Below are positions 11,001 through 48,747 of a DNA stretch of 64,000 bases, in pieces (positions within the stretch are counted from its first letter, which is position 1; each line of letters starts with the position of its first letter). Origin of the DNA: Candidatus Omnitrophota bacterium (GTDB lineage: Bacteria > Omnitrophota > Gorgyraeia > Gygaellales > Profunditerraquicolaceae). The translations under genes were made by a program, and so were the position numbers. The stretch covers positions 106,620-170,619 of the forward strand of contig JAPLLX010000001.1 of the NCBI GenBank assembly GCA_026387335.1. The letters run 5' to 3'. The notes below the pieces were generated by a model. That model saw only the letters and a list, made by a program, of their open reading frames with translations, was not told where the DNA came from and did no database searches.

Positions 11001-11074
11001 TGGTGGTTAAAAAGATAGAAGGATAGCTCGCTAGGTATATTATCTCTTGAAGAAATAGGAAGGGAGTGAAAAAT

Positions 11075-15950: not shown

Positions 15951-15996
15951 ATGGATGTTAGATGGTAGAAAGAAGGTTAAAAAAGGAGTGAAGAAC

Positions 15997-20135: not shown

Positions 20136-21737
20136 ATGGCTAGTATGTTATTGGTACATTGCAATAGACTTGTTTCCGGTGTTCAATACCCCGGTATCTC
20201 AAGTATAGCTGCTTTTGTGAAGCGCGCTGGTCATAGAGTAATTTTTTTTGATACAGCTCATTACACAGACAGTAGAAGTATGGAATCATACAGTGCGTAC
20301 AGAGATATAAAGACTCGTATTGATTTGGAGTTTAAGGGTATAAAGAATAAACAGCTGATGCCATCAAAAAAACCAATAGATATATTACTCTGGGATCTTG
20401 AAAACGAATTTGCTAAAAATAGAATAGATATTATAGGGTTTTCTTCTTTTTCTGACGATTGGCCTTTCGCGCTTTTCCTAATAAAAAAGGTTCATGCTAT
20501 TGAACCAAATCTTCCGATTATTGTAGGAGGAATTCATGCTATTGTTAGTCCAGAGCAAGTGATTAAACATGATGAAGTTTCCATGGTTTGCGTAGGAGAA
20601 GGCGAGATGCCGATAGTTGAGTTATTAAACTCCATTGATGCCGGTAGAATTGATCTTAATATTAGAAATCTATGGATAAGGCACGAAGGGAAAATCATCC
20701 AAAACCCTAGGAGACCTTTATTGGCTTTCAGTGAAAATTTGCCGATGCTTGACTGGAGTTTATATAGCGGTATTCACTTTTATTTTCCTTTTGATGGTAA
20801 ATTATATCGGAGAGGAAGCGTTTTTATGGGCCGGGGTTGTCCATATTCATGTAGCTTTTGTATAAATAATTTCATTAAGAAAATCTATCCCAAAGAACAG
20901 GGTAGAACTTACCTTAAGAGCGTGGAATACCTGATAAAGGAGATTGTTTTTCTAAAAAATAATTACAATTTAGAGTTCCTGCGATTTTGGGATCAAACTT
21001 TTCTCGCCATGCCGAAGGGGTATTTATCGGAATTCGCAAAAGCTTATAATAAAGAAGTAAGGTTACCCTTTACGATAGAAACTATGGCTCAGACTGTTAC
21101 TCATGAGAATGCTAAGATGCTTGTTACTATGGGGTGTCAGTCCGTAAGTGTAGGAGTAGAGACTTCAAATGAGAATTTGAGAAAAAATATTCTAAACAAA
21201 CCGATAAAGAATGAGGTATATGATAGATGTTTTAAGATACTTTCAGAATACGGATTACGTAAAGTTGCTAATTTTATGTTTTTTCTTCCGCATCAAACAC
21301 TTGATGATATGTGGGAGGATGTTTCTATGTGTAAGAGATGGGGCATAGATCATCCCTCCGCCAGGATTTTCTATCCGTATCGGGGGACGCAATTACGCGA
21401 GTATTGTCTTAATAACGATTTACTTGATCTTGATCTTCTTGAGAGGATCGAGAATGAAAATGCGATCGGAGAGATAGGGAATTTAAATGAGAACCATGTT
21501 ACTTTTCAAGATACTGTTTTAAAATTTGATAACAAGCTAAAAGAAGAGGGAAGGCGGCTGCTGGATAATTTTATTTTATTTCAGGAGACTGAAGAATCAG
21601 CTTATGTCGATGTAAGAAAGTTACTTATAAAGAACGATATGGATTCGAATGACGCCTTGAGAAGAATGGAGCGCCAGATATATATAAAACGTTTTAAGGA
21701 AGAACCATTAACGGCAAATTACGGGATGAACTGTTGA
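20136..21737 (+). CDS. B12-binding-domain radical SAM enzyme (class B rSAM, copy 1)
   Basis: N-terminal B12-binding-like Rossmann region, then 'GRGCPYSCSFC' (CX3CX2C) and 'SVSVGVETSNE'. Confidence 0.8.
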   Translation: MASMLLVHCNRLVSGVQYPGISSIAAFVKRAGHRVIFFDTAHYTDSRSMESYSAYRDIKTRIDLEFKGIKNKQLMPSKKPIDILLWDLENEFAKNRIDIIGFSSFSDDWPFALFLIKKVHAIEPNLPIIVGGIHAIVSPEQVIKHDEVSMVCVGEGEMPIVELLNSIDAGRIDLNIRNLWIRHEGKIIQNPRRPLLAFSENLPMLDWSLYSGIHFYFPFDGKLYRRGSVFMGRGCPYSCSFCINNFIKKIYPKEQGRTYLKSVEYLIKEIVFLKNNYNLEFLRFWDQTFLAMPKGYLSEFAKAYNKEVRLPFTIETMAQTVTHENAKMLVTMGCQSVSVGVETSNENLRKNILNKPIKNEVYDRCFKILSEYGLRKVANFMFFLPHQTLDDMWEDVSMCKRWGIDHPSARIFYPYRGTQLREYCLNNDLLDLDLLERIENENAIGEIGNLNENHVTFQDTVLKFDNKLKEEGRRLLDNFILFQETEESAYVDVRKLLIKNDMDSNDALRRMERQIYIKRFKEEPLTANYGMNC

Positions 21738-22004
21738 ATCGGGAGAGCTTTTACAACATTGTTTGAAGCAAAAGTGCTTGTAGGACGCCGGAAGACAGAA
21801 TATAATACGGGTCAGGCCGCACAGTTCATTGAATTACAGTCTCCTGCTCCAGGGGCTATTAAGCCGGAATGGCTAGAAAATGCGGTTACTCTCTCTTAAG
21901 AACTGGTACAATTTATAGGAGCAGGTCACTTAATCAACAGTCTGTTTTTAATTATTTAAGAGAAGAAATAACTTGATGGCAAGCACTAATTTTACTATAA
22001 GTAT

Positions 22005-22970
22005 ATGAAAAAAAACCGGTTATTTAATAGGAGGATTTTAAAACTAAAATCATTAACCCAAAGGGAGCATGGGTTAAAGATTTCGATAATTGCGCCGTTA
22101 GAATTAAAGCATAATCTTGATCTAAATGGAGACCTAAAAAAGGTTGCTCAGCGAATAGCAAAGGCTAAGAAGAAGGGCGCATCTATTATATGGATGATAG
22201 GGGGGCATGTTATTAGATCCGGGGTTCAGCGATATATCATAGATTTGATGGAGAGAGGATATATTTCATGCCTGGCTATGAACGGAGCCGGGATTATCCA
22301 TGATTATGAACTTGCTCTTATCGGAGCAACTACCGAGAGCGTGGCTAAATATATCAAAGAAGGGCAATTCGGTTTATGGAAGGAAACAGGAGAAATCAAT
22401 AATATAATCAATAGAAGCTATAAACAGGGTCTTGGCCTGGGTGAGGGAGTCGGTAAGGCTATTTATGAAGGGAATTTTCCTTATAAAGAGTTTAGCCTGC
22501 TGGCGGCTGGTTATCGTTTGAAGGTTTTAGTAACGGTGCATGTCGGCATAGGTTACGATATTATCCATGAGCATCCTAATTGCGACGGCGCGGCAATGGG
22601 CGCAACTTCTTACCGCGATTTCCTAATGTTTGCTAAAGTCATTAGTAACTTGGAAAAAGGAATTATAATGAATTTCGGTAGCGCGGTAATGGCCCCGGAG
22701 GTATTTTTGAAGGCTTTGAGTATGGCCAGGAACGTTGCTCATCAGAGGAGGAAACAAATAAAGCATTTTACTTCTGTTGTTTGCGATCTTTATAATTTAC
22801 CACCTAAATTTAGCAAAGAGCCGGGGAAACACAATCCGGGTTATTATTTTAGGCCGTGGAAGACAATGCTTGTTAGGACAGTAGCTGACGGAGGAAGCGC
22901 TTTTTACATAAAAGGCTGCCATGCGGATGTAATCCCTGCACTATGGAAGGAAATTAATGAAAGTTCTTGA
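22005..22970 (+). CDS. Hypothetical protein with deoxyhypusine-synthase-like sequence pattern
   Basis: 'IIWMIGGHVIRSGVQRYIIDLMERGYISCLAMNGAGIIHDYELAL' parallels the DHS core '[43 protein letters not shown]'. By-eye similarity only. Confidence 0.3.
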   Translation: MKKNRLFNRRILKLKSLTQREHGLKISIIAPLELKHNLDLNGDLKKVAQRIAKAKKKGASIIWMIGGHVIRSGVQRYIIDLMERGYISCLAMNGAGIIHDYELALIGATTESVAKYIKEGQFGLWKETGEINNIINRSYKQGLGLGEGVGKAIYEGNFPYKEFSLLAAGYRLKVLVTVHVGIGYDIIHEHPNCDGAAMGATSYRDFLMFAKVISNLEKGIIMNFGSAVMAPEVFLKALSMARNVAHQRRKQIKHFTSVVCDLYNLPPKFSKEPGKHNPGYYFRPWKTMLVRTVADGGSAFYIKGCHADVIPALWKEINESS

Positions 22971-23433
22971 GTTCGATGCCTTAGCCGAAAAAATCAAGTG
23001 CTTAAAAGGCCCTGGAAAGAAAATTATCCTTTGTCACGGATGTTTTGATCTAATGCATCCCGGGCATATAAAATATTTTCAGGCAGCCAAGAAAATGGGA
23101 GATATCCTTGTGGTAACGGTTACCCCTGATATTTATGTTGATAAAGGGCCGGGTAGGCCGGTATTTAACCAGCAATTGCGCTCTGAATCAATCGCGGCTC
23201 TTGAGTGTGTTGATTATGTAGCAATTAATAAATGGCCTACGGCGGAAGAAACCATTAGATTATTAAAGCCTGATATATATGTAAAAGGGCAGGAGTTTGA
23301 AGGGCTTAAAGATAAAACCGGAAAGCTTCAGAAAGAATTAAAAGTTATTCAAGAGGTCGGAGCCGAAATCAGGTTTACGCATGAAATAGTATTTTCCTCA
23401 ACGGATTTAATTAATAACAACCTTAAGAGATAA
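22957..23433 (+). CDS. Cytidylyltransferase-like nucleotidyltransferase (RfaE/HldE domain II-like, stand-alone)
   Basis: 'ILCHGCFDLMHPGHIKYF' (HxGH) and 'DILVVTV'. 158 aa. Confidence 0.7.
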   Translation: MKVLEFDALAEKIKCLKGPGKKIILCHGCFDLMHPGHIKYFQAAKKMGDILVVTVTPDIYVDKGPGRPVFNQQLRSESIAALECVDYVAINKWPTAEETIRLLKPDIYVKGQEFEGLKDKTGKLQKELKVIQEVGAEIRFTHEIVFSSTDLINNNLKR

Positions 23434-23435
23434 AA

Positions 23436-24968
23436 ATGAAAAACTCACCTAAAAGCAAAATATTGTTACTCGACGATTTAATTAAAAAAGTAAGTAGCCT
23501 GCGGGCTTCCGGGAAAGTTGTAGTTCAGAGCCACGGGATTTTCGACTTGATCCATCCGGGAGTAATCGAGCATCTTAAATCAGCCAAGGAGCGAGGGGAT
23601 ATATTAATAGCTACTGTTATAGCGGATAAAGATGTACGTAAGGGTCCGGGAAGGCCGATCTTTCCTGGAAACTTGAGGGCAGATAATGTGGCGAGCCTCT
23701 CAATGATTGATTATGTTTGCGTGGTCAGCGATGAAAAGCCTTTTGAATGCGTAAAAAGGATAAAACCTGATATTTTTGCCAGGGGTAAATCCATAAAAGA
23801 CCAAGCCAATGAAATCAGCAATAAGATATTTGAAGAGGAAAAGGAGCTTTATTTTGGTAAGGTGAGGATCCATGAGACCGGCGGATTCTCTTTAAGCTCA
23901 TCGGAAATAATCAATAATTTTCTCGATATCTATCCGGAAGAGGTAAAAAGCTTCCTGAAGCGTTTCTCTAAGAAGTATAACTTTAAGGAAATCAGCGAAA
24001 AGATCAATAGCCTAAAGAAGCTAAAGATCCTGCTTATCGGCGATGGGATAATCGATGAGTATCATTATTGCGAGGCAATGGGCAGGTCAGCCAAAGCCCC
24101 ATTAGTGGTGAACAAATACATAACCCATGAAGTATTTGCCGGGGGCGCTTTTGCTATTGCGAACCACTTGGCGGGATTATCAAGCGATATCCACTTAGTT
24201 TCTTTGCTGGGGAATGATCTCGCGAAGGAAGATTTCATCCGCTCCAGCTTAAAGCCGAACGTAACTCCGAAGTTTTTTTACCGCAAAGACGGCTCAACTG
24301 TGGTTAAAAAGAGGTACATTAATCAGTATCAGAACCAGAAGCTTTTTGAAGTCAATTACCTGAGTGATGCCTATATTAACGGAGGGCTTGAATCGGAAAT
24401 AATCAAGTATCTAAAAGGCACGGTAAAGTCTTATGATTTAATTTTGATCTCTGACTTTGGACATGGGTTCATTACGAACAGGATAATCGAAACGATCCAA
24501 AATTCCGGAGTAAAATTCGCGGTGAATACCCAGACAAATGCCGCTAATGCCGGTTACAACATGATTACTAAATATCGTAAGCCGCTTTATGTTTGCCTGG
24601 ATGAACCGGAGTTAAGATGGGCAGCGCAGGAGAGATTCGCCGATATTGAATCTGTGGCTAAGAAAATTCTGGAAAGCATACATGCTTCTAACCTTATTGT
24701 GACCTTGGGTAAAAGAGGTTCATTCGGGATAAATAATAAGGACCAGGTAAATCATACGCCGATTTTTTCTTCAAAAGTTATAGATACTGTTGGCGCAGGA
24801 GACGCCTTTTTTGCTTTTACTGCGCCCTGTATCGCTCAGAAGATGCCTCTGGATTTAGTTTCTTTTATCGGAAACGCCGTGGGCGCCTTAGCCGTCCAGA
24901 TCGTTTGTAATAAGAGACCGGTTGAGAAGTACGAGTTATTTGAGTTTATTCACGCGCTTTTAGAATAA
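23436..24968 (+). CDS. Bifunctional sugar-phosphate nucleotidyltransferase (N-terminus) / pfkB-family sugar kinase (C-terminus); HldE-like with reversed domain order
   Basis: N-terminus 'VVVQSHGIFDLIHPGVIEHL' (HxGH). C-terminus ribokinase-family 'DTVGAGDAFFA' and 'KILLIGDGIIDEYHYCEAMGRSAKAPL' like HldE domain I. Confidence 0.75.
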   Translation: MKNSPKSKILLLDDLIKKVSSLRASGKVVVQSHGIFDLIHPGVIEHLKSAKERGDILIATVIADKDVRKGPGRPIFPGNLRADNVASLSMIDYVCVVSDEKPFECVKRIKPDIFARGKSIKDQANEISNKIFEEEKELYFGKVRIHETGGFSLSSSEIINNFLDIYPEEVKSFLKRFSKKYNFKEISEKINSLKKLKILLIGDGIIDEYHYCEAMGRSAKAPLVVNKYITHEVFAGGAFAIANHLAGLSSDIHLVSLLGNDLAKEDFIRSSLKPNVTPKFFYRKDGSTVVKKRYINQYQNQKLFEVNYLSDAYINGGLESEIIKYLKGTVKSYDLILISDFGHGFITNRIIETIQNSGVKFAVNTQTNAANAGYNMITKYRKPLYVCLDEPELRWAAQERFADIESVAKKILESIHASNLIVTLGKRGSFGINNKDQVNHTPIFSSKVIDTVGAGDAFFAFTAPCIAQKMPLDLVSFIGNAVGALAVQIVCNKRPVEKYELFEFIHALLE

Positions 24969-24973
24969 GAGGG

Positions 24974-25549
24974 TTGACGATGAAGAATAAAATAAAAAAT
25001 TATCATAAAAAATTTATTAACTTAATCAACTCGATTGAGGTTACGGATAGATCTGGGAAAGCCTTGGATTTTTATCAAGGGATTGAATTAGCTTGTTCAG
25101 TCATTAGAAAGCAATCTCGGCTAGGAGGAAAGGTTTTCTTTATCGGAAACGGAGGGAGTGCGGCTATCGCCAGCCACATGGCTATTGATTTCTGGAAAAA
25201 CTTAAAGATAGAGGCACTCTCTTTTAGCGATAGCTCTCTTTTGACCTGCATCAGCAATGATTTTGGCTATGACTATGTCTTTGCCAAGCCAATTGAATTC
25301 TTTGCCGGTAAAAAGGATATCTTGCTTAGTATCAGCAGTTCTGGAAAATCCCAAAATATACTTAAGGCAGTAGCTGCGGCTAAAGCCAAAGGAGCCAGCG
25401 TCATAACCTTATCCGGTTTTAGCAAAAATAATCCCTTAAGGCTCAAGGGTATTTGTAATTTTTATGTTCCAGCAAGCGAATACGGGCTTGTGGAAGTAGG
25501 GCATCAATACGTTTGCCATTATATTGCCGATATCTTATTGCAGAAATAA
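24974..25549 (+). CDS. gmhA: Sedoheptulose-7-phosphate isomerase (SIS domain, GmhA)
   Basis: 'KVFFIGNGGSAAIASHMAIDF' and 'ISSSGKSQNIL' are GmhA SIS signatures. 191 aa. Confidence 0.8.
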   Translation: MTMKNKIKNYHKKFINLINSIEVTDRSGKALDFYQGIELACSVIRKQSRLGGKVFFIGNGGSAAIASHMAIDFWKNLKIEALSFSDSSLLTCISNDFGYDYVFAKPIEFFAGKKDILLSISSSGKSQNILKAVAAAKAKGASVITLSGFSKNNPLRLKGICNFYVPASEYGLVEVGHQYVCHYIADILLQK

Positions 25550-25550
25550 A

Positions 25551-26618
25551 ATGGATGAATTCAAAATAGACAGCCATAAATTAATCTATCATGTTTCAAG
25601 GGTGAATGACTGGATAGAGGGTAAAAATATCTTTCCGATTTACCTTGAAATATCGACTTCAGGTTCCTGTAATCACCGCTGCACTTATTGCGCCTTGGAT
25701 TTTATGGGGTATCAGCCGAGGTTTCTGAAAACGGATATTTTGAAGAAAAGGCTTTCTGAGATGGCGCGTCTGGGCGTGAAAAGTATCATGTACGCAGGAG
25801 AAGGCGAGCCACTTCTGCATAAAGATATAGCAGAAATAATTAATCACACCAAGAGTTCAGGTATTGATGTGGGACTGACCACCAACGGAGTCTTACTAGA
25901 CAAAGAGTTAATTGACCGGACTTTGGCTAATGTTTCTTGGGTTAAAGTAAGTATAAACGGCGCAACTAAAGAAACTTATAGAAAAATTCATCAAAGCAAA
26001 GCGGTTGATTTAGATAAAGTGATTAAGAATATGAGATACGCTGTTAAATCGCGCATTAAGAATGGACACAAATGCGTTCTTGGGATGCAGCTTTTGCTTT
26101 TACCGGAAAACAGCAAGGAGGTTAAAGCATTAGCTGTGTTGGCAAGCGGAATAGGTCTGGATTATTTAGTGGTAAAGCCTTATTCGCAGCATCCATTTAG
26201 CAAAACTACTAGGTATAAGAATATTAAATATGATAAATATCTTAAGCTTGCTGATGAACTAAAAGCTTTTAAGACAGATAAATTTAATGTGATCTTTCGC
26301 GCAAATACTATGAAGAAGTGGGATCATGAGACACGTAACTATAAACATTGTTATGCTTTACCTTTCTGGTCTTATATTGATGCGGGTGGAAATGTATGGG
26401 GATGTAGCGTTTACCTGGGGAAGAACGAATTCCTGTACGGAAATATTTATAAGCAAGATTTTAAGGATATTTTGAACAGTCCTAAGAGATCGAGAATAAT
26501 TAAAATGGCTGCCCGGAAGCTTTGTGTTAAGGATTGCAGGGTAAATTGCAGGATGGATGAAATCAACAGGTATCTTTGGGAACTCAAACATCCATCAGAA
26601 CACGTTAATTTTATTTAA
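25551..26618 (+). CDS. Radical SAM enzyme (unknown subfamily) with Cys-rich C-terminus
   Basis: 'GSCNHRCTYC' (CX3CX2C), 'YAGEGEPLL', and C-terminal Cys cluster 'CSVYLG...CVKDCRVNC'. Confidence 0.7.
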   Translation: MDEFKIDSHKLIYHVSRVNDWIEGKNIFPIYLEISTSGSCNHRCTYCALDFMGYQPRFLKTDILKKRLSEMARLGVKSIMYAGEGEPLLHKDIAEIINHTKSSGIDVGLTTNGVLLDKELIDRTLANVSWVKVSINGATKETYRKIHQSKAVDLDKVIKNMRYAVKSRIKNGHKCVLGMQLLLLPENSKEVKALAVLASGIGLDYLVVKPYSQHPFSKTTRYKNIKYDKYLKLADELKAFKTDKFNVIFRANTMKKWDHETRNYKHCYALPFWSYIDAGGNVWGCSVYLGKNEFLYGNIYKQDFKDILNSPKRSRIIKMAARKLCVKDCRVNCRMDEINRYLWELKHPSEHVNFI

Positions 26619-26655
26619 GGTTTTGAATAAAAACATGGAAGGAAAAAAGCTGAGT

Positions 26656-27522
26656 ATGGCGCGCAGTGGTAATAATAAAGATTCAAAACGAATTCTAATT
26701 ACTGGCGCAGGTGGTTTTGTGGGAGGTGCGCTTTTTTCCAAGTTAAAATATGCTAAACCCATTGGCGTAGATTTTGGAATAACAGAGGGTTGTCAAGAAA
26801 ATAAATTATTCAATGTTGACCTTAGAGATGAAGAGGCAGTTAAAACCTTGTTTAATGAGTATTCGCCGGATATAGTATTTCATTTTGCTGCGTTGACTTC
26901 TCCGCAACGAAACGAAAAGAATATCGAGCTTGCTACTGAAGGTCACATTAAAATAACTAACAATATTTTAAATAATTTAAATAAGGATACTCACCTAATA
27001 TTTTTGTCAACTGATAAAGTCTTCGATGGAGTAGATCCTTGTCCGGATGAAAAGGCAAAAGTAAATCCTTTATGGATATACGGAAAACTTAAATGGGAAT
27101 GCGAGAATATCGTTCAAGAACGCTTAAAGAAATCCCATATATTCAGGCTGGGTATTGTGCATTCGTTGGGAGATTGTTTTGCTTCGTCCAAAGAGTCGGG
27201 CCCAAGTTCTTTTGTAGATAAGGCCATTATTGATATAAAAGCCGGCAGAGAAGTAGTGGTATTTGATAATGTCGAGCGTTGTTTTGTAAGATTACGGTTA
27301 CTGGTAAAATTATTAGAAATGGCAATGGATGATTGTCATTATGGAATCTATCATGTTGGTTCAGCGATGATGAATTATTATGATAGGATCCGAATCCTAT
27401 GCGAAGAAGAACGGATAAAATGGGAAGGTAAGCTTATCCCAAGATCCGGTAAGGTATTACCAATAGCGCAGAATTTGAATACAGGTAAGCTTAAGAGGGT
27501 TTTTGGTCTAACCTTCAATTAA
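26656..27522 (+). CDS. NAD-dependent epimerase/dehydratase (extended SDR)
   Basis: 'ILITGAGGFVGGALF' and 'YGKLKWECE' (YxxxK). Start chosen at the ATG after SD-like 'GGAAGGA'. Confidence 0.6.
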   Translation: MARSGNNKDSKRILITGAGGFVGGALFSKLKYAKPIGVDFGITEGCQENKLFNVDLRDEEAVKTLFNEYSPDIVFHFAALTSPQRNEKNIELATEGHIKITNNILNNLNKDTHLIFLSTDKVFDGVDPCPDEKAKVNPLWIYGKLKWECENIVQERLKKSHIFRLGIVHSLGDCFASSKESGPSSFVDKAIIDIKAGREVVVFDNVERCFVRLRLLVKLLEMAMDDCHYGIYHVGSAMMNYYDRIRILCEEERIKWEGKLIPRSGKVLPIAQNLNTGKLKRVFGLTFN

Positions 27523-27564
27523 ACGGGAACGAATAATAATGATGAGCAGAAAAGGAATTAAATA

Positions 27565-28614: not shown

Positions 28615-28638
28615 AATACAAATTTTAAAGAGGTGGGT

Positions 28639-29415: not shown

Positions 29416-29435
29416 AAATTATAAAGGATTAAAAA

Positions 29436-31174: not shown

Positions 31175-31235
31175 AAGTAACTTTTATAATGTCAAATTTT
31201 CGCTGGAGAAAGGCAGTTAACAATAACTAGTTAGC

Positions 31236-32471: not shown

Positions 32472-32479
32472 GATAGATT

Positions 32480-34273: not shown

Positions 34274-34343
34274 GATGTGCCGCCTTAATCTTAACCCGTT
34301 TAGTTCATGGCCTATTGATTCAGATATAGCTGTGGTAAGAACT

Positions 34344-35399: not shown

Positions 35400-35486
35400 A
35401 CCATCAGGTTTAAGTTGGTGAAGTTGGATAAAAATGGAGATTTTGACCGGGATCGGCCAAGCCGATTTGGGTAGATTGCTATATAA

Positions 35487-37441: not shown

Positions 37442-37483
37442 AGGCAAAGACTATATGAAAAATCCACGAGGTGAAAAGGGAAG

Positions 37484-38407
37484 ATGCTGAAGAACCCCTT
37501 AGTGATTGTTACTGGATGTTCAGGATTTCTCGGTAAGAATTTAATAAACGAATTAGCAACAAAAGAGGTAGATGTCCTTGGGATAGATAAGGCGGCTGAG
37601 GATGGTTATGGCCATAAGAATATAAAAATTAATAGATTGGATATTTTAACCCAAAATGGTATGGCTATCCTTAGAAGATATTTAAATAAGGTAAAGAACA
37701 AAGAAATTTATTTGGTTCACCTTATGGGAATACCGGATGTGGATGAATGTGAGAAAAATAAAGCTTTAGCTTACGATGTAAATGTAAAATCCGTGAAGAG
37801 CGTATGGGAGTTAGCTAGAAATTACAATATGAAAAAAATTGTTTTCCCTTCAACTGCTTTGGTTTATGGTACTAAATACGAAGACCAGATTAACGAAGGA
37901 TTCTCTCTTTTTCCTGAGAACACATACGCCCGGGAAAAGCTTGAAGCAGAGAATTATTTGATTAACAATTCTGCAGGTTCAAAGGTAGACTCCGTAATAC
38001 TTAGGTTATCTAATATTTATGGCGTTGGTATGAATGAAAATAACGTAGTGAATACAATACTAAAACAGTTCGCCGCAGGTTATCTGAGGTTAAGGGAATA
38101 CAGAAGTGTTAGAGACTATGTGTATGTGGAAGACGTAATTAGGGCTTTTATTATGTCGATTTTTTCTGAGTGTAAATTTAAAGTCTATAATGTCGGTAGT
38201 TCCATGGGGTATTCTGTGTGGGAATTGGCTAAAACAATAGCGGTGGCAACAGGTAGGGAAAAAATTATCTTGGGAATGAATCTAAGCGAGGAAGAGATTA
38301 GGGGGAGTGCAAGATTAGTGTTATGTTGCGATAGGATAAAGAATGATTTAAAGTGGGTTCCAGACTATAATTTTGAAAGTGGCATAAAAAGGATGATGAA
38401 TGCCTAA
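37484..38407 (+). CDS. NAD-dependent epimerase/dehydratase family protein
   Basis: 'VIVTGCSGFLGKNL' and 'YAREKLEAE'. Confidence 0.6.
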   Translation: MLKNPLVIVTGCSGFLGKNLINELATKEVDVLGIDKAAEDGYGHKNIKINRLDILTQNGMAILRRYLNKVKNKEIYLVHLMGIPDVDECEKNKALAYDVNVKSVKSVWELARNYNMKKIVFPSTALVYGTKYEDQINEGFSLFPENTYAREKLEAENYLINNSAGSKVDSVILRLSNIYGVGMNENNVVNTILKQFAAGYLRLREYRSVRDYVYVEDVIRAFIMSIFSECKFKVYNVGSSMGYSVWELAKTIAVATGREKIILGMNLSEEEIRGSARLVLCCDRIKNDLKWVPDYNFESGIKRMMNA

Positions 38408-39596
38408 GAGAAGAAAGATCGCTATATTTACCGGAAATAGGGCAGAATATGGCTTGCAATATCCAATAATTAAGGCTATCTCTGAATCTCGGATGCTAAA
38501 ATACTTTCTTCTGGTATCCGGAGCGCATTTAGACGAAAAATTTGGCTATACTAAGAAAGAGATTGAGAAAGACGGATTTAAGGTTTATGCCGAAATAAAG
38601 GCAGAAGTAAAAGCTGATAGCCTGTTTTCAACCACGCAGGCCATAGGTAATATTATTATAAACTTAAGTAGGGTTCTTAGGCGGATTAATCCGGATTTCT
38701 TGGTAGTTTATGCCGATAGATTTGAGGGCTTAGCTGCCGTTGTAACAGGTTCTCAGATGGGGATTCCCGTTGCGCATGTCGAGGGAGGAGATGTTACTTC
38801 TGGGGGGGCGCTTGATGATTATGTACGCCATGCGATGACAAAGCTTTCACATATTCATTTTACTACTAATCAAGAGGCTGCGCAAAGAATCGCCAGATTA
38901 GGTGAAGAAAAATGGAGAATATTTAATGTCGGCTTTTCTGTTGTTGACTTGATTAAGTCAGGTAAATTTGCCTCTTACGCTGAGGTATGCGAAAAGATAG
39001 GTTTTAAGTTAGATCTAAGTAAACCGGTAATATTGTTTACTCAGCATTCCATAACTACAGAGTTGAAAAATATATCCTCGCAGATCAATCCTTCGCTTGG
39101 AGCTCTTAAGTATTTTGCCGCTAAAGGCGTCCAGATTATAATTACCTATCCTAATAACGATGCGGGAGGAAGAAGAATAATAGAAATCCTGCAGAGATTA
39201 GGAAGAAAAAAGATTATCAATATAAATATATTCCCTCACTTGGGCCGTTATTATTATCATGGCCTGCTTAACATCTGCGGTAAAGAAACATTAGGTGTCT
39301 GTGTTGGAAATTCTTCAAGCGGGATTAAAGAGACTCCTGCCTTAAGCTGTCCTTTTGTAAATATCGGAACCCGACAAAAGGAAAGACTGCGTTCCATTAA
39401 TGTTATCGATACTCGTTATGATACAAATGAAATAATCCACGCCATTAATAAGTCTCTGTTCAATAAGGACTTCAGAGAAAGTTGTAGAAGATGTAGGAAT
39501 CCATATGGCGAAGGAGGCACAGGCAGGAAGATAGAGAAGGTTCTTGCCAGTTTAGCTATTAATAAGAAGCTTATTCAGAAGAAGATAACTTACTAA
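38400..39596 (+). CDS. Hydrolysing UDP/GDP-N-acetylhexosamine 2-epimerase (NeuC/LegG-like)
   Basis: 'IAIFTGNRAEYGL', 'HVEGGDVTSGGALDDYVRHAMTKLSHIHF'. A G7 tract sits at 38802-38808 inside the HVEGGD/TSGG region. Confidence 0.8.
   Translation: MPKRRKIAIFTGNRAEYGLQYPIIKAISESRMLKYFLLVSGAHLDEKFGYTKKEIEKDGFKVYAEIKAEVKADSLFSTTQAIGNIIINLSRVLRRINPDFLVVYADRFEGLAAVVTGSQMGIPVAHVEGGDVTSGGALDDYVRHAMTKLSHIHFTTNQEAAQRIARLGEEKWRIFNVGFSVVDLIKSGKFASYAEVCEKIGFKLDLSKPVILFTQHSITTELKNISSQINPSLGALKYFAAKGVQIIITYPNNDAGGRRIIEILQRLGRKKIININIFPHLGRYYYHGLLNICGKETLGVCVGNSSSGIKETPALSCPFVNIGTRQKERLRSINVIDTRYDTNEIIHAINKSLFNKDFRESCRRCRNPYGEGGTGRKIEKVLASLAINKKLIQKKITY
38802..38808 (+). repeat. Homopolymeric G7 tract inside the NeuC/LegG-like CDS
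   Basis: 'tctgggggggcg' read directly. It encodes the 'SGGA' segment. Confidence 0.8.
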
Positions 39597-39621
39597 ACTT
39601 TAATGGAAAAAGGAGTAGATA

Positions 39622-40704
39622 ATGAACTTAAATGTTGAAGAAATCAAGAAGTTTACCGTTTCTGCGGAGATATCATTAAAAAATGTTATGAAGTTTTTGA
39701 GTGACGCAAAAAGTAGGGTAGTTTTTGTCGTAGATGAGTCCGGTAAGCTCACGGGTTCTATAACCGATGGGGATGTCAGGCGGGCTATTCTTAAAGGTGT
39801 GGATTTTAAGCAGCCCATATCCGAGATTATGTTCAAAGCCCCGCGTTTTGTCAAGCGTTCCGATAGGAAGCTCGAGGAAAAGGTGAAAAACTATCTGGTT
39901 GAAGAAAAACTTTATGCTATACCTCTTTTGGATGAACAGGATAAAATAGTAGATGTTTTCTTTTGGCATGATTTTTTAAAGTTCCATCCTTTAGAATCCC
40001 CCGAAAAAACTACCTTTACTAATCCAGTTGTGATTATGGCCGGTGGTAAGGGCGAAAGGCTAGATCCATTTACGAAAATATTACCCAAGCCCTTAATTCC
40101 TTTTGGTGATGAGCCTATAATTGATAAAATAATGGGAAATTTTAATAAGCACGGGTTTTCCAACTTTATACTTACCCTGAACTATAAAAAAGAGATGATA
40201 AAAATGTATTTTAAGGAAAATGCGTCTGCCTATAAAGTGCAATGGGTGGAAGAGGACGAGTATTTAGGGACTGCGGGAGGAATCGGGCTGCTTAAAGAAC
40301 TAGTCAGAGAAACATTTTTCGTATGTAACTGTGATACTATAATCGAGAACGACTTTAAAAATATTTTATTATGGCATAAGGCGGAAAAGGCCCTTATTAC
40401 GATTATCGGATGCCACAAAGAAATGGTAATTCCGTATGGTATTCTCGAAATGGAAGAAGGCTGCTTAAAAGCAATTAACGAAAAACCAATGTTTGATTTT
40501 GTCATAAATACTGGAGTGTATATAATTGAGCCGGAAGTCTTATCTCTTATTCCAGCCAAACAAAAACTGGATATGGACTACCTAATAGATAAAGTAATGA
40601 GCCGCGGTAAGGTCGCTGTTTATCCTATATGCGAAGGATGGCTTGATCTCGGTCAATGGAAAGAATATAAAGATAGTCTTTATTTATTGCAATACAGTAA
40701 ATAA
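39622..40704 (+). CDS. CBS-pair + sugar-1-phosphate nucleotidyltransferase (PtmE-like)
   Basis: N-terminal CBS pair, then 'VIMAGGKGERLDPFTKILPKPLIPF' (G-x-G-x-R-L NTP-transferase motif). SD 'AAAGGAG'. Confidence 0.75.
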   Translation: MNLNVEEIKKFTVSAEISLKNVMKFLSDAKSRVVFVVDESGKLTGSITDGDVRRAILKGVDFKQPISEIMFKAPRFVKRSDRKLEEKVKNYLVEEKLYAIPLLDEQDKIVDVFFWHDFLKFHPLESPEKTTFTNPVVIMAGGKGERLDPFTKILPKPLIPFGDEPIIDKIMGNFNKHGFSNFILTLNYKKEMIKMYFKENASAYKVQWVEEDEYLGTAGGIGLLKELVRETFFVCNCDTIIENDFKNILLWHKAEKALITIIGCHKEMVIPYGILEMEEGCLKAINEKPMFDFVINTGVYIIEPEVLSLIPAKQKLDMDYLIDKVMSRGKVAVYPICEGWLDLGQWKEYKDSLYLLQYSK

Positions 40705-40720
40705 ATGAAAGCGTAAAATA

Positions 40721-41446
40721 ATGTATAGAGGAAAGAGTGTACTAGCATTAATTCCGGCAAGGGGAGGGAGCAAGGGTTTGCCAGGAAAGAATATTCGCTT
40801 ACTTTTGGGAAAACCTTTGATCTCCTGGTCCATAGAGCAGGCTTTAGGAAGCCGGTATATTGATAAAGTGGTTGTAAGCACTGATTCAACGAAAATTACC
40901 GGTATTGCCCGTCACTATGGAGCGGAAGTTCCTTTTAGGAGGCCGAAGAAATTAGCATCCGACAATGCGAAAAGTATGGATGTTATTTTACACGCAATAA
41001 ATTTTTATGAATCACGGGGTCATATTTTTGATATTATCGTTTTTCTTGAGCCGACCTCTCCGTTAAGGGAGATAGAAGATATCGATAAGGCGATTGAGAT
41101 CCTTATGACTAATCAAAAGGCTGAAAGCATAGTTGGTGTTGCAAAACTTGAATCTGCTCATCCGGAGTTTCTGGTGAAGCTAAAGAAAGGTTTTTTGGAG
41201 CCTTATTTGAATAAGGCGTACAAAGTTTTTCGAAGGCAGGAGGTGGAGGAGCTATATTTCTTTGAGGGGAGTTTATATATAGCTTACGCGGAATCATTAA
41301 AGAATAAAAAAACATTCTATCACAATAAGACATTGGCCTACATCGTTCCCAAGTGGAAATCTTTTGAAATGGATGATTATACGGATTTTATAATAATCGA
41401 GGCAATTCTTAGGGCGAGAAGAAGAGGAGTAAAAATTTATGACTAA
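40721..41446 (+). CDS. CMP-nonulosonate synthetase (NeuA/LegF/PseF family cytidylyltransferase)
   Basis: 'ALIPARGGSKGLPGKNI' and 'FLEPTSPLR'. Confidence 0.8.
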   Translation: MYRGKSVLALIPARGGSKGLPGKNIRLLLGKPLISWSIEQALGSRYIDKVVVSTDSTKITGIARHYGAEVPFRRPKKLASDNAKSMDVILHAINFYESRGHIFDIIVFLEPTSPLREIEDIDKAIEILMTNQKAESIVGVAKLESAHPEFLVKLKKGFLEPYLNKAYKVFRRQEVEELYFFEGSLYIAYAESLKNKKTFYHNKTLAYIVPKWKSFEMDDYTDFIIIEAILRARRRGVKIYD

Positions 41447-42755
41447 AAAAACAGGTATCAGATTATGGAATGAGGCAAAAACTATTATTCCTGGAGGGAA
41501 TCAGCTTTTGTCAAAAAGGGTAGAGCGTTTTCTCCCGGGTGAATGGCCGGCATATTATACTAAGGCAAAAGGCTGCCAGATTTGGGATCTGGATGGCAAT
41601 AGATATTATGATTTTGCTCAGATGGGAGTCGGTTCTTGTGCCTTGGGTTATGCGGATGAGGATGTGAATAGGGCAGTTATTAGTGCGATTCGTGATGGAT
41701 CAATGGCTACATTAAACTGTTACGAAGAAGTTGAATTAGCTAAAAAGTTAATAAAAATCCATCCCTGGGCTGATTCAGTCAAGTTTGCAAGAACCGGCGG
41801 TGAGGCTTGTGCTATAGCAATTAGAATTGCCCGCGCTGCTGCAGGCCGCAGTAAAATTGCATTTTGCGGCTATCATGGATGGCATGATTGGTATCTTTCG
41901 GCAAATATAGCGAATTCAAATAATCTTGACGAACAGCTTTTGCCCGGCCTTGCTCCGTTAGGAGTGCCCTTTGAGTTAAAAGGAAGCGCGATCCCTTTTA
42001 ATTATAACAAATTAAGCGAGTTAGAAAATATTATTAAGTCTAACCCCAAACAAATTGGCGTTATTATTATGGAACCTATGCGCAGCATTTATCCTGAGCC
42101 CGGATTTCTTGAAGGAGTTAGAAAGATAGCCGACCGCATAGGAGCGATTCTTATCTTTGATGAAGTAACCTCAGGTTTTCGCCTTAATTTAGGCGGAATT
42201 CATCTGGTTTTTGGGGTTAAGCCGGATATTGCGGTATTTGGAAAAGCACTTGGCAATGGTTTCCCTATTACGGCTGTTATCGGCAAGAAAAAAATTATGG
42301 ATTTTGCGCAACGAACTTTCGTCAGTTCTACTTTTTGGACTGAACGCATAGGTTTCGTAGCTGCGTTAGCTACATTAAGAAAGATGGCGGAGAAAAAAGT
42401 GCAGAAGAAGCTTGTTTATTTTGGGGAACGTATTAATGCGGGATGGAAAAAGTTGGCAAGAAAACATAATTTGGGCATTACCATCAGCGGAATACCTCCG
42501 CTTACGCACATTTCGTTTAAAAATAATGTTCCTTTGGAAACTCAAACCCTATATGCGCAGGAAATGCTTGAACAGGGTTTCCTAGTGAGTTCATCCGTAT
42601 ATGCGACTTATGCGTATACGGATGAACTTATTGATAAGTTTATTTTTCATTCAGACAGGGCTTTTGCAAAAATCAGAAAAGCATTAGATTCGACGGAAAT
42701 AAAGCGATTTTTGAAAAACGATGTAATACAAGAGGGTTTTAAACGGCTTGCTTAA
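41439..42755 (+). CDS. Class III PLP-dependent aminotransferase (glutamate-1-semialdehyde aminomutase-like)
   Basis: 'DLDGNRYYDF', 'FDEVTSGFR' and 'FGKALGNGFP' (PLP-Lys region). Confidence 0.8.
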   Translation: MTKKTGIRLWNEAKTIIPGGNQLLSKRVERFLPGEWPAYYTKAKGCQIWDLDGNRYYDFAQMGVGSCALGYADEDVNRAVISAIRDGSMATLNCYEEVELAKKLIKIHPWADSVKFARTGGEACAIAIRIARAAAGRSKIAFCGYHGWHDWYLSANIANSNNLDEQLLPGLAPLGVPFELKGSAIPFNYNKLSELENIIKSNPKQIGVIIMEPMRSIYPEPGFLEGVRKIADRIGAILIFDEVTSGFRLNLGGIHLVFGVKPDIAVFGKALGNGFPITAVIGKKKIMDFAQRTFVSSTFWTERIGFVAALATLRKMAEKKVQKKLVYFGERINAGWKKLARKHNLGITISGIPPLTHISFKNNVPLETQTLYAQEMLEQGFLVSSSVYATYAYTDELIDKFIFHSDRAFAKIRKALDSTEIKRFLKNDVIQEGFKRLA

Positions 42756-42784
42756 GTTTTATTCATATAGAAAGAGGAAGGACT

Positions 42785-43555
42785 ATGCTAAAAGATAAGG
42801 TAATAATTGTTGCTGGCGGAGCAGGTCTATTAGGCAGTGAATTCGTGAAAGCAATTGCGGAAAATAATGGAACTGCGATTATCGGTGATAGTGATGAAAA
42901 AAAAGGCCGTAAGACAAAAACTGATATTTTAAGAAATTTGCGAAATGGCAGGGTAGACTTTATTGTGTTAGATATAACTTCTTTAAAGTCTATTAAAGCA
43001 ATGATTAAGAAGGTTCATTTAAAATATGGAAAAATTGATGCTTTAGTTAATAGCGCATTCCCTAAGAATCGAAATTATGGTAAATATTTTTTTGATGTAC
43101 AGTATAAAGACTTTTGTGAGAACCTAAACACACATTTAGGCGGATATTTCCTAACTTCACAACAGGCCGCTTTATATTTTAAACAACAAGGGTATGGTAA
43201 TATTGTGAATATTGCTTCTATTTATGGGGTAATTCCTCCTAAGTTTGAAATATACCAAGGGACAAAAATGACTATGCCAGTGGAATATGCTATGATAAAA
43301 TCGGCGCTAATTCATTTGACAAAATATATGGCTAAATATCTAAAAGGGATGAATATCCGCGTTAACGCTATCAGTCCAGGGGGCATCTTTGATAATCAGC
43401 CGGATCTTTTCGTGAAAGCATATAATAATTTATGCCTAAACAAAGGGATGCTGGGGAAAAAAGATTTGAATGGGACTTTAGTTTATCTGCTGTCAGAGAT
43501 GTCAAAAGATTTAAACGGGCAGAATATAACCGTGGATGGTGGATTCACATTGTAA
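42785..43555 (+). CDS. Short-chain dehydrogenase/reductase (PtmA/FabG-like)
   Basis: 'VIIVAGGAGLLGSEF' and 'YAMIKSALIHLTK'. SD 'GAGGAAGG'. Confidence 0.75.
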   Translation: MLKDKVIIVAGGAGLLGSEFVKAIAENNGTAIIGDSDEKKGRKTKTDILRNLRNGRVDFIVLDITSLKSIKAMIKKVHLKYGKIDALVNSAFPKNRNYGKYFFDVQYKDFCENLNTHLGGYFLTSQQAALYFKQQGYGNIVNIASIYGVIPPKFEIYQGTKMTMPVEYAMIKSALIHLTKYMAKYLKGMNIRVNAISPGGIFDNQPDLFVKAYNNLCLNKGMLGKKDLNGTLVYLLSEMSKDLNGQNITVDGGFTL

Positions 43556-43574
43556 GTAACCAAGGAGTTTAGTG

Positions 43575-45173
43575 ATGAAATTTCTTATGATCTATGCTAA
43601 CGATACTGCTAATACAAAAGTTCCAATAGGGATACTTTATATACTTACCCGCTTAAAAAAAGAAGGGCATGAAGTGAGTATGTTTGATAGCTCTAAATAC
43701 GCCATAGATATAGATAAAAATGATTACGCGATAAGAGGAAGGTTTCTAAATTTTCAGGCAGTTGATTTAAGGCCTTACGGTGTTACCTTTGAGAGCGTAA
43801 CAATGGAACAACTTGACCAAAAGTTGAAAGAACATATATTAAATTTTTGTCCGGATTTAATAGGAATTTCTATACTTGAAGATACAAGTAAAACCGGGTT
43901 GCATTTTGCTGAGATTTGTAAAAAAGTAGCTCCGAAAGTCCCCCTTATCGTAGGGGGCGTATATTGTTTAACAAGGCCGGAATACGTGATAGAGAATAAA
44001 TTTGTGGATATTGTTTGCGTGGGGGAAGGCGAAGAGAGCATAAGTGAGCTAATGTTTAATTTGTCAAAGGGCAAAAGTTTTGAGGCAATTTCCAATCTTT
44101 GGATTAAATTACCAGACGGGGACATTAAAAAAAATGCCATAGGGTATCCTACTGAATTAGATTCTTTGCCATACATAGATCTTTCTATAATTGAGGATAG
44201 GCATCTTTTCGCCCCTTTCGCGGGACACGCCTATAAGACATCTTTTGTGGAGGGCCAAAGAGGATGTCCAAGGAGGTGTACCTATTGCTGTAATCAGATT
44301 TTTTTAGACGCATACTCAAAATTTGGCGCTAAATATTTAAGGCGCAAAACAGTTAATCGCCTTATTCAAGAAATAGTATATTTAAAAGATAATTTTGGGC
44401 TTAATTTTATTCAATTCATAGATGACGATTTTTTGTTTAGCCCATTAGATAGAATAAAAGAATTTTCTGAAAGTTATAAAAAGCATGTGAATCTTCCCTT
44501 TTGGATACAAGCTGAAGCTTGCAACGTAACCGAAGAAAAAATTAAACTAATCAGAAAAGCCGGTTGTATTTCAATCAGTATCGGTATTGAAACCGGGAGC
44601 AAGTATATATTGGAAAAGATTATGAAACGGAAAACATCCCAAGAGATTACTTTAAAAGCATTTAAGATAATGCATAGGCACGGCATAAGAACATCCGCAA
44701 ATGTTATTTTGGGTATGCCTGAGGAAACCAGGGAAAATATTTTTGAAACAATTGAGTTTGTGAGGAAATGCAAGCCCGTAAGCATTAACTCTAATATTTT
44801 TGTCCCTTACTATGGAACGGCCTTGCGAGAATATTGCGTTGAAAAGGGGTATTTGGATAAAGACTATCACCGTGGTTCGCGCAATTCCTGGAAAGCCGTT
44901 TTAAATATGCCGCAAATTTCACAAGATGAGGTTGAGAATTTATCAAGAGTATTTGTGCTTTACGCAACATTGTCTAAGAAATATTGGGCTCAAATAGGAA
45001 TGGTCGAGAAATTTCCTGAAAAAAGCTTAGAGCTTCAAAGAAAGCTTGAAAATATTTTTTGGAAAATTGTGTGCAAACGCGGGATTAATATCGATGTTAG
45101 AGGGTATGATTATAGTCTGTTTTTTAAAAATAGACAATTGGAGCTGCAATCTCAAGGTAAGAATAAAGTTTAA
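43575..45173 (+). CDS. B12-binding-domain radical SAM enzyme (class B rSAM, copy 2)
   Basis: B12-binding-like N-terminus, 'GQRGCPRRCTYC' (CX3CX2C) and 'SISIGIETGS'. Roughly 35% identical to copy 1 by eye. SD 'AAGGAG'. Confidence 0.8.
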   Translation: MKFLMIYANDTANTKVPIGILYILTRLKKEGHEVSMFDSSKYAIDIDKNDYAIRGRFLNFQAVDLRPYGVTFESVTMEQLDQKLKEHILNFCPDLIGISILEDTSKTGLHFAEICKKVAPKVPLIVGGVYCLTRPEYVIENKFVDIVCVGEGEESISELMFNLSKGKSFEAISNLWIKLPDGDIKKNAIGYPTELDSLPYIDLSIIEDRHLFAPFAGHAYKTSFVEGQRGCPRRCTYCCNQIFLDAYSKFGAKYLRRKTVNRLIQEIVYLKDNFGLNFIQFIDDDFLFSPLDRIKEFSESYKKHVNLPFWIQAEACNVTEEKIKLIRKAGCISISIGIETGSKYILEKIMKRKTSQEITLKAFKIMHRHGIRTSANVILGMPEETRENIFETIEFVRKCKPVSINSNIFVPYYGTALREYCVEKGYLDKDYHRGSRNSWKAVLNMPQISQDEVENLSRVFVLYATLSKKYWAQIGMVEKFPEKSLELQRKLENIFWKIVCKRGINIDVRGYDYSLFFKNRQLELQSQGKNKV

Positions 45174-45196
45174 TTTCATGAGGTTTGGAGAAACAG

Positions 45197-48657: not shown

Positions 48658-48747
48658 TCAAGTGGTTTTCAAGTTAGCGCCGGACTTTTGTTAAGACACG
48701 TTTCAAAAATTTAGAATAACGTAAAGTAATCTAGCGATAGTTGAACC

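Follow-up and report, generated by a model that had tools for sequence, protein, structure and literature searches.

The window analysed here, a 64,000-nucleotide stretch of contig JAPLLX010000001.1 from a Candidatus Omnitrophota bacterium, carries four genes for radical S-adenosylmethionine (rSAM) enzymes, all of which very probably tailor the sugars of a long surface-glycan locus. Two of the enzymes have a B12-binding domain (B1 and B2) and two end in a SPASM-type domain (S1 and S2). They fall into three separate modules: one built around a NeuB-family ulosonate synthase lacking the SAF domain (module 1, 9.8–21.7 kb), a heptose/transketolase module (module 2, 22.0–31.2 kb) and a legionaminic acid module (module 3, 34.3–45.2 kb). 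The first-pass annotation had placed four such enzymes among sugar genes and proposed radical chemistry on the sugars of surface glycans. The location was confirmed and conserved synteny supported the chemistry. The enzymes belong, however, to three modules and not to one shared pathway, and the C-methylation suggested at first became only one option, the nearest solved relative of the core being AprD4. The four genes are as follows.

14907–15950, + strand: S1, BtrN-like twitch-domain rSAM (Radical_SAM 77 bits, SPASM 65.2 bits)

20136–21737, + strand: B1, class B-type protein (B12-binding domain and rSAM), from Pfam, PDB profile, AlphaFold, Foldseek and synteny

25551–26618, + strand: S2, 355-residue rSAM with abbreviated SPASM domain (Radical_SAM 87 bits, SPASM 30 bits)

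43575–45173, + strand: B2, class B-type protein (B12-binding domain and rSAM), from the same five lines of evidence

A six-frame scan of the window found four open reading frames (ORFs) of at least 150 residues with a CX3CX2C motif and no fifth. The substantial ORFs all lie on the + strand with a G+C content of about 0.31–0.43, and by Pfam nearly all of them are sugar-pathway, glycosyltransferase or export genes. The four rSAM genes are packed among sugar genes, with spacing that ranges from overlap to 68 bp; the one larger gap, of 267 bp, is downstream of B1. The neighbourhoods of homologues were retrieved, mostly from metagenomic contigs (labelled L002 and so on), and the orthologues of each rSAM were found to keep sugar-pathway neighbours in Omnitrophota, Nitrospirota, Brocadiales, Desulfovibrionia and Alphaproteobacteria. 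Since the same combinations recur at independent loci in several phyla, the clustering of rSAM and sugar genes is not due to chance, and radical tailoring of sugars by these enzymes is well supported. The best explanation is that the four enzymes tailor the sugars of three nucleotide-sugar modules in one long single-strand surface-glycan locus; taken as a whole, with the mechanism proposed below, it is held with modest confidence, somewhat above an even balance.

B1 (533 residues) carries the motif GCPYSCSFC at residues 234–242 (Cys 235/239/242) and B2 (532 residues, with an alternative GTG start at 43572) carries GCPRRCTYC at 230–238 (Cys 231/235/238). Both proteins exceeded the Pfam gathering cutoffs for the B12-binding domain PF02310 (49.9 bits for B1 and 42.4 bits for B2; cutoff 32.1) and for the rSAM domain PF04055 (77 and 85.7 bits), so that the domains and motifs read by eye in the first-pass annotation were borne out. 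As had been supposed, both Cys triads align with the core of the rSAM domain: they sit right where the PF04055 match begins, C-terminal to the B12 domain, and are invariant in 20–21 orthologues. The two proteins are paralogues with 32% identity over 436 residues (E 1e-73), close to the 35% estimated by eye.

The N-terminal domains, also taken earlier for cobalamin-binding domains, were matched as such by Pfam, by profile comparison with the PDB and by predicted fold. When family profiles were compared with the PDB, the matches to cobalamin-bound TokK, OxsB, CysS and MgmA began at residues ~80–125 and included the N-terminal Rossmann domain. The AlphaFold models (predicted local distance difference test score 91.2 for B2 and 87.7 for B1) predict a class B fold with high confidence, and Foldseek matched them to TsrM, OxsB, MgmA, AprD4, CysS and TokK (E 1e-14 to 1e-20). 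The Rossmann B12 domain, CX3CX2C core and overall fold are thus shared with enzymes of the GenK/Fom3 type and with the solved class B enzymes (TokK, CysS, MgmA, TsrM and OxsB), although identity to the solved members is only ~14–17%. GenK, Fom3 and their like belong to antibiotic gene clusters, whereas B1 and B2 lie in primary cell-surface glycan loci (nonulosonate and heptose).

In a search of 1.84 billion representatives the B2 orthologues formed one 50% cluster in a large radiation (3101 representatives at E <=1e-30, with more than 150 at 30–39% identity), of which B1 is another branch. Among the species genomes of GTDB, relatives of B2 occurred only in metagenome-assembled genomes (MAGs) of Marinimicrobia, Nitrospirota, Bathyarchaeota and Brevinematales. 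A distinct B12-rSAM subfamily with ~32% identity to B1 was also seen (L055 4287–16347; also L049–L065, L069, L074, L082 and L088). Its cassette, which is itself recurrent, holds a fusion of nucleoside triphosphate (NTP) transferase and HAD domains, a CDP-alcohol phosphatidyltransferase, a ketol-acid reductoisomerase (KARI), a GAPDH-like protein, a 355-residue SPASM rSAM, a GT1 glycosyltransferase and Wzx. The L049–L065-type proteins were rejected as part of the nonulosonate association because they reside in this different polysaccharide cassette.

Module 1 begins with a cytidylyltransferase fusion gene and ends with B1. Besides S1 and B1, the following genes were assigned.

9825–11000, + strand: cytidine monophosphate (CMP)-ulosonate cytidylyltransferase fused to a KdsC-type (HAD) sugar-phosphate phosphatase (CTP_transf_3 plus Hydrolase_3)

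11066–11923, + strand: short NeuB-family ulosonate synthase without SAF, 285 residues (Pfam NeuB only, 231 bits; NeuB_NnaB 239 vs 400)

11949–13817, + strand: asparagine-synthase-like, amidotransferase-type protein (Asn_synthase 23.8 bits; TIGR01536 54.6, under cutoff)

13822–14895, + strand: class I SAM methyltransferase, 357 residues (Pfam Methyltransf_23/11/12)

15937–17514, + strand: Wzx-type flippase (Pfam Polysacc_synt, MatE, MurJ)

The full order is the cytidylyltransferase/KdsC fusion, SAF-less NeuB, AsnB-like protein, methyltransferase, S1, Wzx, a GT2-like protein, a 403-residue protein of no family and B1. The fusion scored 129 bits with the NCBIfam model for PseF-like proteins, 101 for KDN-9-P phosphatase and 100 for KdsC, all under the cutoffs, and its homologues adjoin B1 orthologues. 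Homologues of the methyltransferase (~30% identity) stand beside short NeuB genes in L002, L019 and L071. No GATase/glutaminase domain was detected by Pfam in the AsnB-like protein (622 residues), which is one of two asparagine-synthase-family proteins in the window; the other (62127–63905) has full GATase plus Asn_synthase domains.

Orthologues of B1 (47–73% identical) were found next to a CMP-ulosonate cytidylyltransferase in all but one of the loci with usable flanks. Those that have it are L002/L003, L004, L005, L016, L017, L019, L021, L022 and L023, and most of them also have a NeuB gene within 10 kb. A SAF-less NeuB with 50–64% identity to that of the window lies one to three genes from the B1 orthologue in L002–L005, L017 and L019, and a full-length NeuB is present in L016. 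A further paralogue of class B is usually present in these loci, and a twitch rSAM and a TylF-type O-methyltransferase are frequent. Among metagenomic B1 loci with at least 50% identity and at least 4.5 kb in length, five of six contained the cytidylyltransferase, and two class B genes were likewise present in five of six. Three to six rSAM genes within ~20 kb, including tandem B12-rSAM paralogues, were seen in L002 (10001–19450), L005 (6823–21608) and L096 (6897–19803), a hint that one sugar may undergo several radical steps, iteratively or in succession.

Most characterised class B enzymes are methylases. GenK acts on C-6' of gentamicin and Fom3 on CMP-hydroxyethylphosphonate, a cytidylylated substrate, and the linkage of B1 and B2 to cytidylyltransferases recalls, by analogy, the logic of Fom1 and Fom3. 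It is proposed that module 1 makes and decorates a CMP-activated 3-deoxy-ulosonic acid. B1 and B2 would bind cobalamin in the N-terminal Rossmann domain and, using a 5'-deoxyadenosyl radical and methylcobalamin, would transfer a methyl group to an unactivated carbon, either of the ulosonic acid or of its CMP- or nucleoside diphosphate (NDP)-linked precursor, in parallel with Fom3 (CMP-linked substrate) and GenK (C-6' of an aminoglycoside). Methylation specifically is given slightly less than an even chance.

Module 3 resembles the Leg/Ptm pathway of Campylobacter, Legionella and Plesiomonas and was assigned the following genes, B2 being followed by the last two.

34275–35399, + strand: full-length nonulosonate synthase, NeuB plus SAF (NeuB 239 bits; NeuB_NnaB 356 vs 400)

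35487–36461, + strand: polysaccharide deacetylase family protein (Polysacc_deac_1)

36461–41446, + strand: LegB 4,6-dehydratase, epimerase/reductase, NeuC hydrolysing 2-epimerase, CBS-NTP-transferase (PtmE-like) and CMP-nonulosonate synthetase (NCBIfam, Pfam)

41439–42755, + strand: class III (HemL-like) aminotransferase (Aminotran_3; PRK06209 266 bits, under cutoff)

42785–43555, + strand: PtmA-like short-chain dehydrogenase/reductase (SDR; PRK09186 349 vs cutoff 255; FlagModPtmA 268 bits)

45185–45505, + strand: acyl carrier protein (ACP)-like ORF with a DSL motif, read from the sequence

45498–47186, + strand: FkbH-domain protein (TIGR01686 FkbH 282 vs cutoff 147)

The likeness extends to LegB, NeuC, the PtmE-like protein, the CMP-synthetase, NeuB plus SAF and the PtmA-like SDR. 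LegB (TIGR04180, 483.5 vs cutoff 475) and NeuC (375 vs 236) both scored above their cutoffs, whereas NeuB (356 vs 400) and the CMP-synthetase (158 bits with the PseF-like model, 205.7 being required) fell short. A DegT aminotransferase (6649–7773) and a hexapeptide transferase (53675–54160) lie elsewhere in the locus. It is proposed that module 3 is a legionaminic-acid-type pathway ending in B2. Known Leg/Ptm pathways lack an rSAM gene (PMC4481668), whereas the clusters in the window, in Nitrospirota and in other Omnitrophota end in one of class B.

Orthologues of B2 (56–62% identity, from an Omnitrophota-like contig and from Nitrospirota) end legionaminic-type clusters. In L007 and L011 the B2 orthologue directly follows a class III aminotransferase and a PtmA-like SDR (61–65% identical to that of the window), and in L006 it follows the aminotransferase without the SDR; the aminotransferase homologues of the three loci are 28–68% identical. 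The fullest cluster, L007, runs through a dehydratase, DegT aminotransferase, 2-epimerase, NeuB, PglD-like acetyltransferase, CBS-NTP-transferase, CMP-synthetase, GFO/IDH oxidoreductase, class III aminotransferase and SDR to the rSAM.

Several findings weigh against the reading of B1 and B2 as methylases, or more widely against assigning a function to the four proteins. No NCBIfam equivalog cutoff was reached by any of the four, and function is for that reason not transferable by homology. The top curated-family matches of the class B pair are HpnJ and BchE, which are not methylases: B2 scored 138 of the 578 bits required for HpnJ (TIGR03471), 113 of 481 for BchE (TIGR02026) and 77 of 500 for AprD4 (NF033070), and B1 scored 77, 80 and 32 bits with the same models, all under the cutoffs. 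The best scores also include a W-cofactor maturase-like model (115 vs cutoff 380). AprD4, the rSAM 1,2-diol dehydratase of apramycin biosynthesis, which is not known to use cobalamin, was the best PDB sequence match (6fd2) of both proteins and of both family profiles, ranked first in Foldseek for B1 and had the highest TM-score for B2. The His of the GGxH motif is missing from the B2 family (GGVYC in B2, GGVFC as family consensus). We know of no universal sequence motif for cobalamin binding; such binding is not readable from the sequences of B1 and B2, and AprD4 is an example of a similar architecture that works without cobalamin. Lastly, proteins like B2 at or below 53% identity occur in other NDP-sugar contexts (L008–L010 and L012), so that specificity is not uniform in the B2 family.

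Many of these points would fit B1 and/or B2 being cobalamin-independent or non-methylating enzymes that carry out an AprD4-like diol dehydration or a ring contraction or rearrangement like those of HpnJ and OxsB. The target would be the side chain of the ulosonic acid or an NDP-sugar, and the keto or deoxy product would be passed to the SDR for reduction or to the class III aminotransferase for amination, both encoded directly upstream of B2 and its orthologues, in the manner of the AprD4/AprD3 deoxygenation pair. AprD4 gives the best core match with B1 and B2, acts on a carbohydrate substrate and works with a partner reductase. However, its alignment covers only the rSAM core and C-terminal part (residues ~199–449). 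Its own N-terminal domain has no detectable sequence homology to those of B1 and B2, which align with cobalamin-bound enzymes and pass the Pfam B12-binding cutoff, and its family model falls far short of its cutoff. The hopanoid and bacteriochlorophyll contexts of HpnJ and BchE were not found either, the neighbours of B1 and B2 being sugar genes. The SDR is also a poor indicator, since PtmA-type SDRs are present in legionaminic clusters of Campylobacter and Plesiomonas that have no rSAM (PMC4481668), and is thus probably a core pathway enzyme and not an rSAM partner. For the same reason the aminotransferase and SDR were down-weighted as dedicated partners of B2 on the analogy of GenK/GenQ/GenB1 or AprD4/AprD3. 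Non-methylating chemistry is accordingly considered rather unlikely. Because the nearest solved relative of the core dehydrates a sugar diol and does not methylate, C-methylation is only one option among several that stay in play; it is the leading one, plausible but unproven.

The genes that follow B2 raise another possibility for that enzyme. This region (45185–50541) encodes the ACP-like protein, FkbH, a glyoxalase/methylmalonyl-CoA-epimerase-like protein, a 355-residue protein of no family and a LIC12162-family transferase, which, together with the deacetylase, look like genes for swapping the N-acetyl group of the nonulosonate for a glycerate-derived acyl group. B2 might then act on an acyl group bound to a carrier protein or pantetheine, for instance by methylating a glyceryl- or acyl-ACP of the FkbH/ACP pair, and this group would later become the N-acyl of the nonulosonic acid. 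CysS and TokK/ThnK methylate pantetheinylated substrates, and CysS and TokK are among the structural matches of B2. The ACP-like ORF and FkbH start 11 bp downstream of B2, and the deacetylase adjoins NeuB and LegB, which suggests N-acyl exchange. The FkbH/ACP pair is not conserved beside the B2 orthologues in L006, L007 and L011, however, where the legionaminic genes are, and no carrier protein was found near the B1 orthologues. FkbH/ACP was therefore rejected as the substrate supplier of B2, and action on a carrier-bound acyl group is deemed quite improbable.

Turning to S1 and S2, both passed the PF13186 cutoff of 21.5 bits; the SPASM-type domain expected for S1 was thus confirmed, and S2, predicted earlier simply as a fourth rSAM, was found to have a SPASM-type tail in addition. 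The cluster cysteines of S1 are at 56/60/63 and its auxiliary cysteines are at 249, 267/268, 312 and 315; the C-terminal cysteines of S2 are C267, C285, C325, C329 and C333. Both tails therefore hold four to five cysteines, arranged as CX12GX4C plus CX2C in S1 or CX3CX3C in S2, and the full seven-Cys SPASM motif (CX9-15GX4C ... CX2CX5CX3C ... C) was not found in either. With so few C-terminal cysteines, the two are classed as twitch or abbreviated SPASM proteins. Only the rSAM core is common to them (28% identity over 150 residues).

BtrN is the twitch-domain dehydrogenase of 2-deoxy-scyllo-inosamine, an aminocyclitol, in butirosin biosynthesis. Its structure 4m7s was the best PDB match of S1 (E 3.9e-15), and phmmer aligned S1 residues 256–316 with BtrN 176–236, keeping three of the four auxiliary cysteines (that of GX4C and the CX2C pair). 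The remaining one, the first in order, falls outside the alignment on its N-terminal side, and S1 has C249 there. On its sequence, S1 is assigned to the BtrN-type twitch family; it shares with BtrN (4m7s/4m7t) the aligned auxiliary-cluster domain and a carbohydrate/aminocyclitol pathway setting, and differs in its weak core similarity (19.5 bits), its ~80 additional residues, its N-terminal extension and its place in an ulosonic-acid locus. Like BtrN, S1 may take a hydrogen from a carbinol carbon of the sugar and so form a ketone, which would later be aminated or amidated, or it may epimerise that carbon.

The best PDB matches of S2 were BlsE, MoaA, viperin and DesII (E 1e-9 to 1e-4, core only). 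These enzymes abstract hydrogen from a sugar joined to a nucleoside or nucleotide, a likeness that fits the placement of S2 in an NDP-heptose operon. S2 differs from them in having its own CX12GX4C...CX3CX3C tail and in belonging to a distinct and extremely conserved 355-residue family: it has more than 6000 homologues, and the top 120 are 65–87% identical and nearly all exactly 355 residues long.

Most characterised SPASM enzymes are peptide maturases, and the first-pass annotation had hinted at such a role. S1 and S2 did give matches to NCBIfam models of PqqE, sactipeptide and ranthipeptide maturases, although these were weak and far under the cutoffs, and their best solved relatives act on sugars or nucleotides. 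By Pfam, no precursor-peptide, protease or transporter genes typical of ribosomally synthesised and post-translationally modified peptides were found among the window neighbours, and the synteny with sugar genes is conserved across phyla. The rule that equates SPASM with peptide maturation does not apply to S1 and S2. That they are peptide maturases, or that the four rSAMs have unrelated housekeeping or lipid functions and lie in the locus by chance, is regarded as hardly credible.

The genes of module 2, apart from S2, were assigned as follows.

22005–22970, + strand: GSU2086-family protein (Rossmann, deoxyhypusine-synthase/ArgZ-like; NF052581 391 vs cutoff 250)

22957–23433, + strand: RfaE-domain-II-like nucleotidyltransferase (CTP_transf_like; TIGR02199 105 bits, under cutoff)

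23436–24968, + strand: HldE-like bifunctional nucleotidyltransferase/PfkB kinase with reversed domain order (CTP_transf_like plus PfkB; HldE 159, under cutoff)

24974–25549, + strand: GmhA-like SIS sugar-phosphate isomerase (SIS_2; gmhA 98 bits, under cutoff)

26557–27522, + strand: RmlD-like NDP-sugar reductase/epimerase (RmlD_sub_bind, Epimerase)

27565–28614, + strand: Zn-dependent alcohol dehydrogenase (ADH_N/ADH_zinc_N)

28633–29415, + strand: SDR (adh_short)

29436–30236 and 30236–31174, + strand: N and C parts of a split transketolase-like thiamine pyrophosphate (TPP) enzyme (Transketolase_N 168 bits; Transket_pyr plus Transketolase_C)

The coordinates listed for the RmlD-like ORF include the last 62 nt of S2 (26557–26618); its translation probably starts further downstream. 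The S2 neighbourhood was compared over six loci, namely the window and five others (Brocadiales L014, L015, L099, ERZ27297570 and Solidesulfovibrio carbinolicus). A split transketolase/E1-like TPP enzyme adjoins or lies near S2 in all six, and HldE-like and SIS genes are upstream of it in five, with a GmhA-like SIS gene immediately upstream in five of the six. Further rSAMs of both the SPASM and B12 types are present in three of the five non-window loci; L015 has a B12-rSAM and an rSAM without SPASM match, and the S. carbinolicus plasmid has B12-rSAMs only.

In Geobacter, GSU2086 is located between hldE and gmhA in what is listed as a sugar biosynthesis operon (PMC5585712). From Geobacter to Omnitrophota and Desulfovibrionia the family keeps HldE-like and GmhA-like genes as neighbours (also L096 21510–22475), and the GSU2086-family protein was rejected as an rSAM partner because of that location in Geobacter. 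Its Rossmann domain also resembles that of nickel-pincer ornithine cyclodeaminase. The region 22000–32000 of the window has a G+C content of 0.38–0.43, compared with 0.31–0.36 in the 8 kb upstream, and S2 is up to 87% identical to proteins of other MAGs, which together suggest that module 2 is mobile as a cassette.

It is proposed that module 2 is a heptose-nucleotide pathway of the HldE/GSU2086/GmhA type in which S2 acts with the split TPP enzyme and the three reductases. S2 would perform a radical oxidation, dehydration or similar reaction on the nucleotide-heptose, and the resulting carbonyl would serve as acceptor for the transketolase-like enzyme, which would extend or branch it by two carbons before the reductases act. 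E1-like pairs add C2 branches to keto-sugars in antibiotic pathways, and module 2 is read here by that analogy. It should also be noted that the window opens with a second split transketolase pair (630–2305), after which come two NDP-sugar epimerase/dehydratase genes; with the pair of module 2 this makes two transketolase-like enzymes in the locus.

Searching plasmid-encoded proteins turned up two informative records from cultured bacteria. On pDCAR1 of S. carbinolicus DSM 3852 (78–93 kb), a single operon contains a SAF-less NeuB (285 residues), HldE-like, GSU2086-family and SIS genes, an S2 orthologue and two B12-rSAMs; identities to the window are 35% for the HldE-like protein, 53% for the GSU2086-family protein, 41% for the SIS protein and 54% for the S2 orthologue. 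A third B12-rSAM lies ~8 kb away in the same cluster, and the divergent genes include pseF, a second CMP-transferase, methyltransferases, FabG, a split transketolase (45% and 31%), an ATP-grasp protein, pseB and pseC. This operon demonstrates that a SAF-less NeuB can be joined with the heptose-type module in a single transcription unit; the window has the two side by side, with B1 at the junction. The plasmid of Azospirillum thermophilum CFH 70021 has a CMP-transferase followed directly by a B12-rSAM and then by an RNase_T-type exonuclease, with a SAF-less NeuB (45% identical to that of the window), a HAD/CMP-transferase-like protein, a TylF methyltransferase, LegB, LegC, NeuC and rfaE1 nearby. 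Such a 3'-5' exonuclease beside the CMP-transferase/rSAM pair was seen both in L004 (12552–13169) and on this plasmid (L097 15489–16106), an odd recurrence. A match on a plasmid of S. magneticus was uninformative, lying in a region rich in insertion sequences. As the modules are carried on plasmids of two cultured strains, the question is experimentally tractable.

In the open-access text searched, no paper was found that links rSAM enzymes to nonulosonic-acid or heptose surface-glycan pathways. An Omnitrophota preprint that names radical SAM concerns giant proteins and was set aside as irrelevant, and the rSAM genes mentioned in a paper on C. jejuni HS:19 are unrelated. In Magnetospirillum gryphiswaldense, CMP-activated ulosonic acids with a C10 backbone marker have been detected by mass spectrometry, with CMP-sugar peaks one CH2 (14.016 Da) apart at m/z 679.198, 693.214 and 707.230; no genes are assigned to these sugars there, and neither radical SAM nor cobalamin is mentioned (preprint 10.64898/2026.04.20.719630).

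CMP-ulosonic acids extended or branched beyond nine carbons might be the joint product of the class B rSAMs, the heptose/transketolase module and the SAF-less NeuB, a reading considered unlikely on present evidence. Such a skeleton could arise if a Leg/Pse/Kdn-type sugar were C-methylated with the help of cobalamin, or if phosphoenolpyruvate were condensed with a heptose-derived acceptor. Either route would yield sugars of the M. gryphiswaldense type, and this should be taken as a lead and not as a result. If true, it would supply the missing biosynthetic route to C10-backbone CMP-ulosonic acids, with concrete candidate genes, and would point to a widespread, anaerobe-type radical toolkit for surface glycans.

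To our knowledge, examples of sugars tailored by rSAM enzymes come almost exclusively from antibiotic pathways such as those of gentamicin, apramycin, butirosin and fosfomycin. The enzyme classes described here are known; what is new is their embedding as conserved parts of primary surface-glycan pathways, in which they have no characterised member. Class B and twitch rSAMs are recurrent, conserved parts of such pathways in Omnitrophota, Nitrospirota, anammox bacteria, Desulfovibrionia and Alphaproteobacteria. Sialic-acid-like sugars determine how phages recognise a cell, what charge its surface carries and how it evades immunity, and new modifications of their carbon skeleton would widen the known chemical space of these sugars. 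The arrangement may explain how bacteria make unusual sialic-acid-like sugars.

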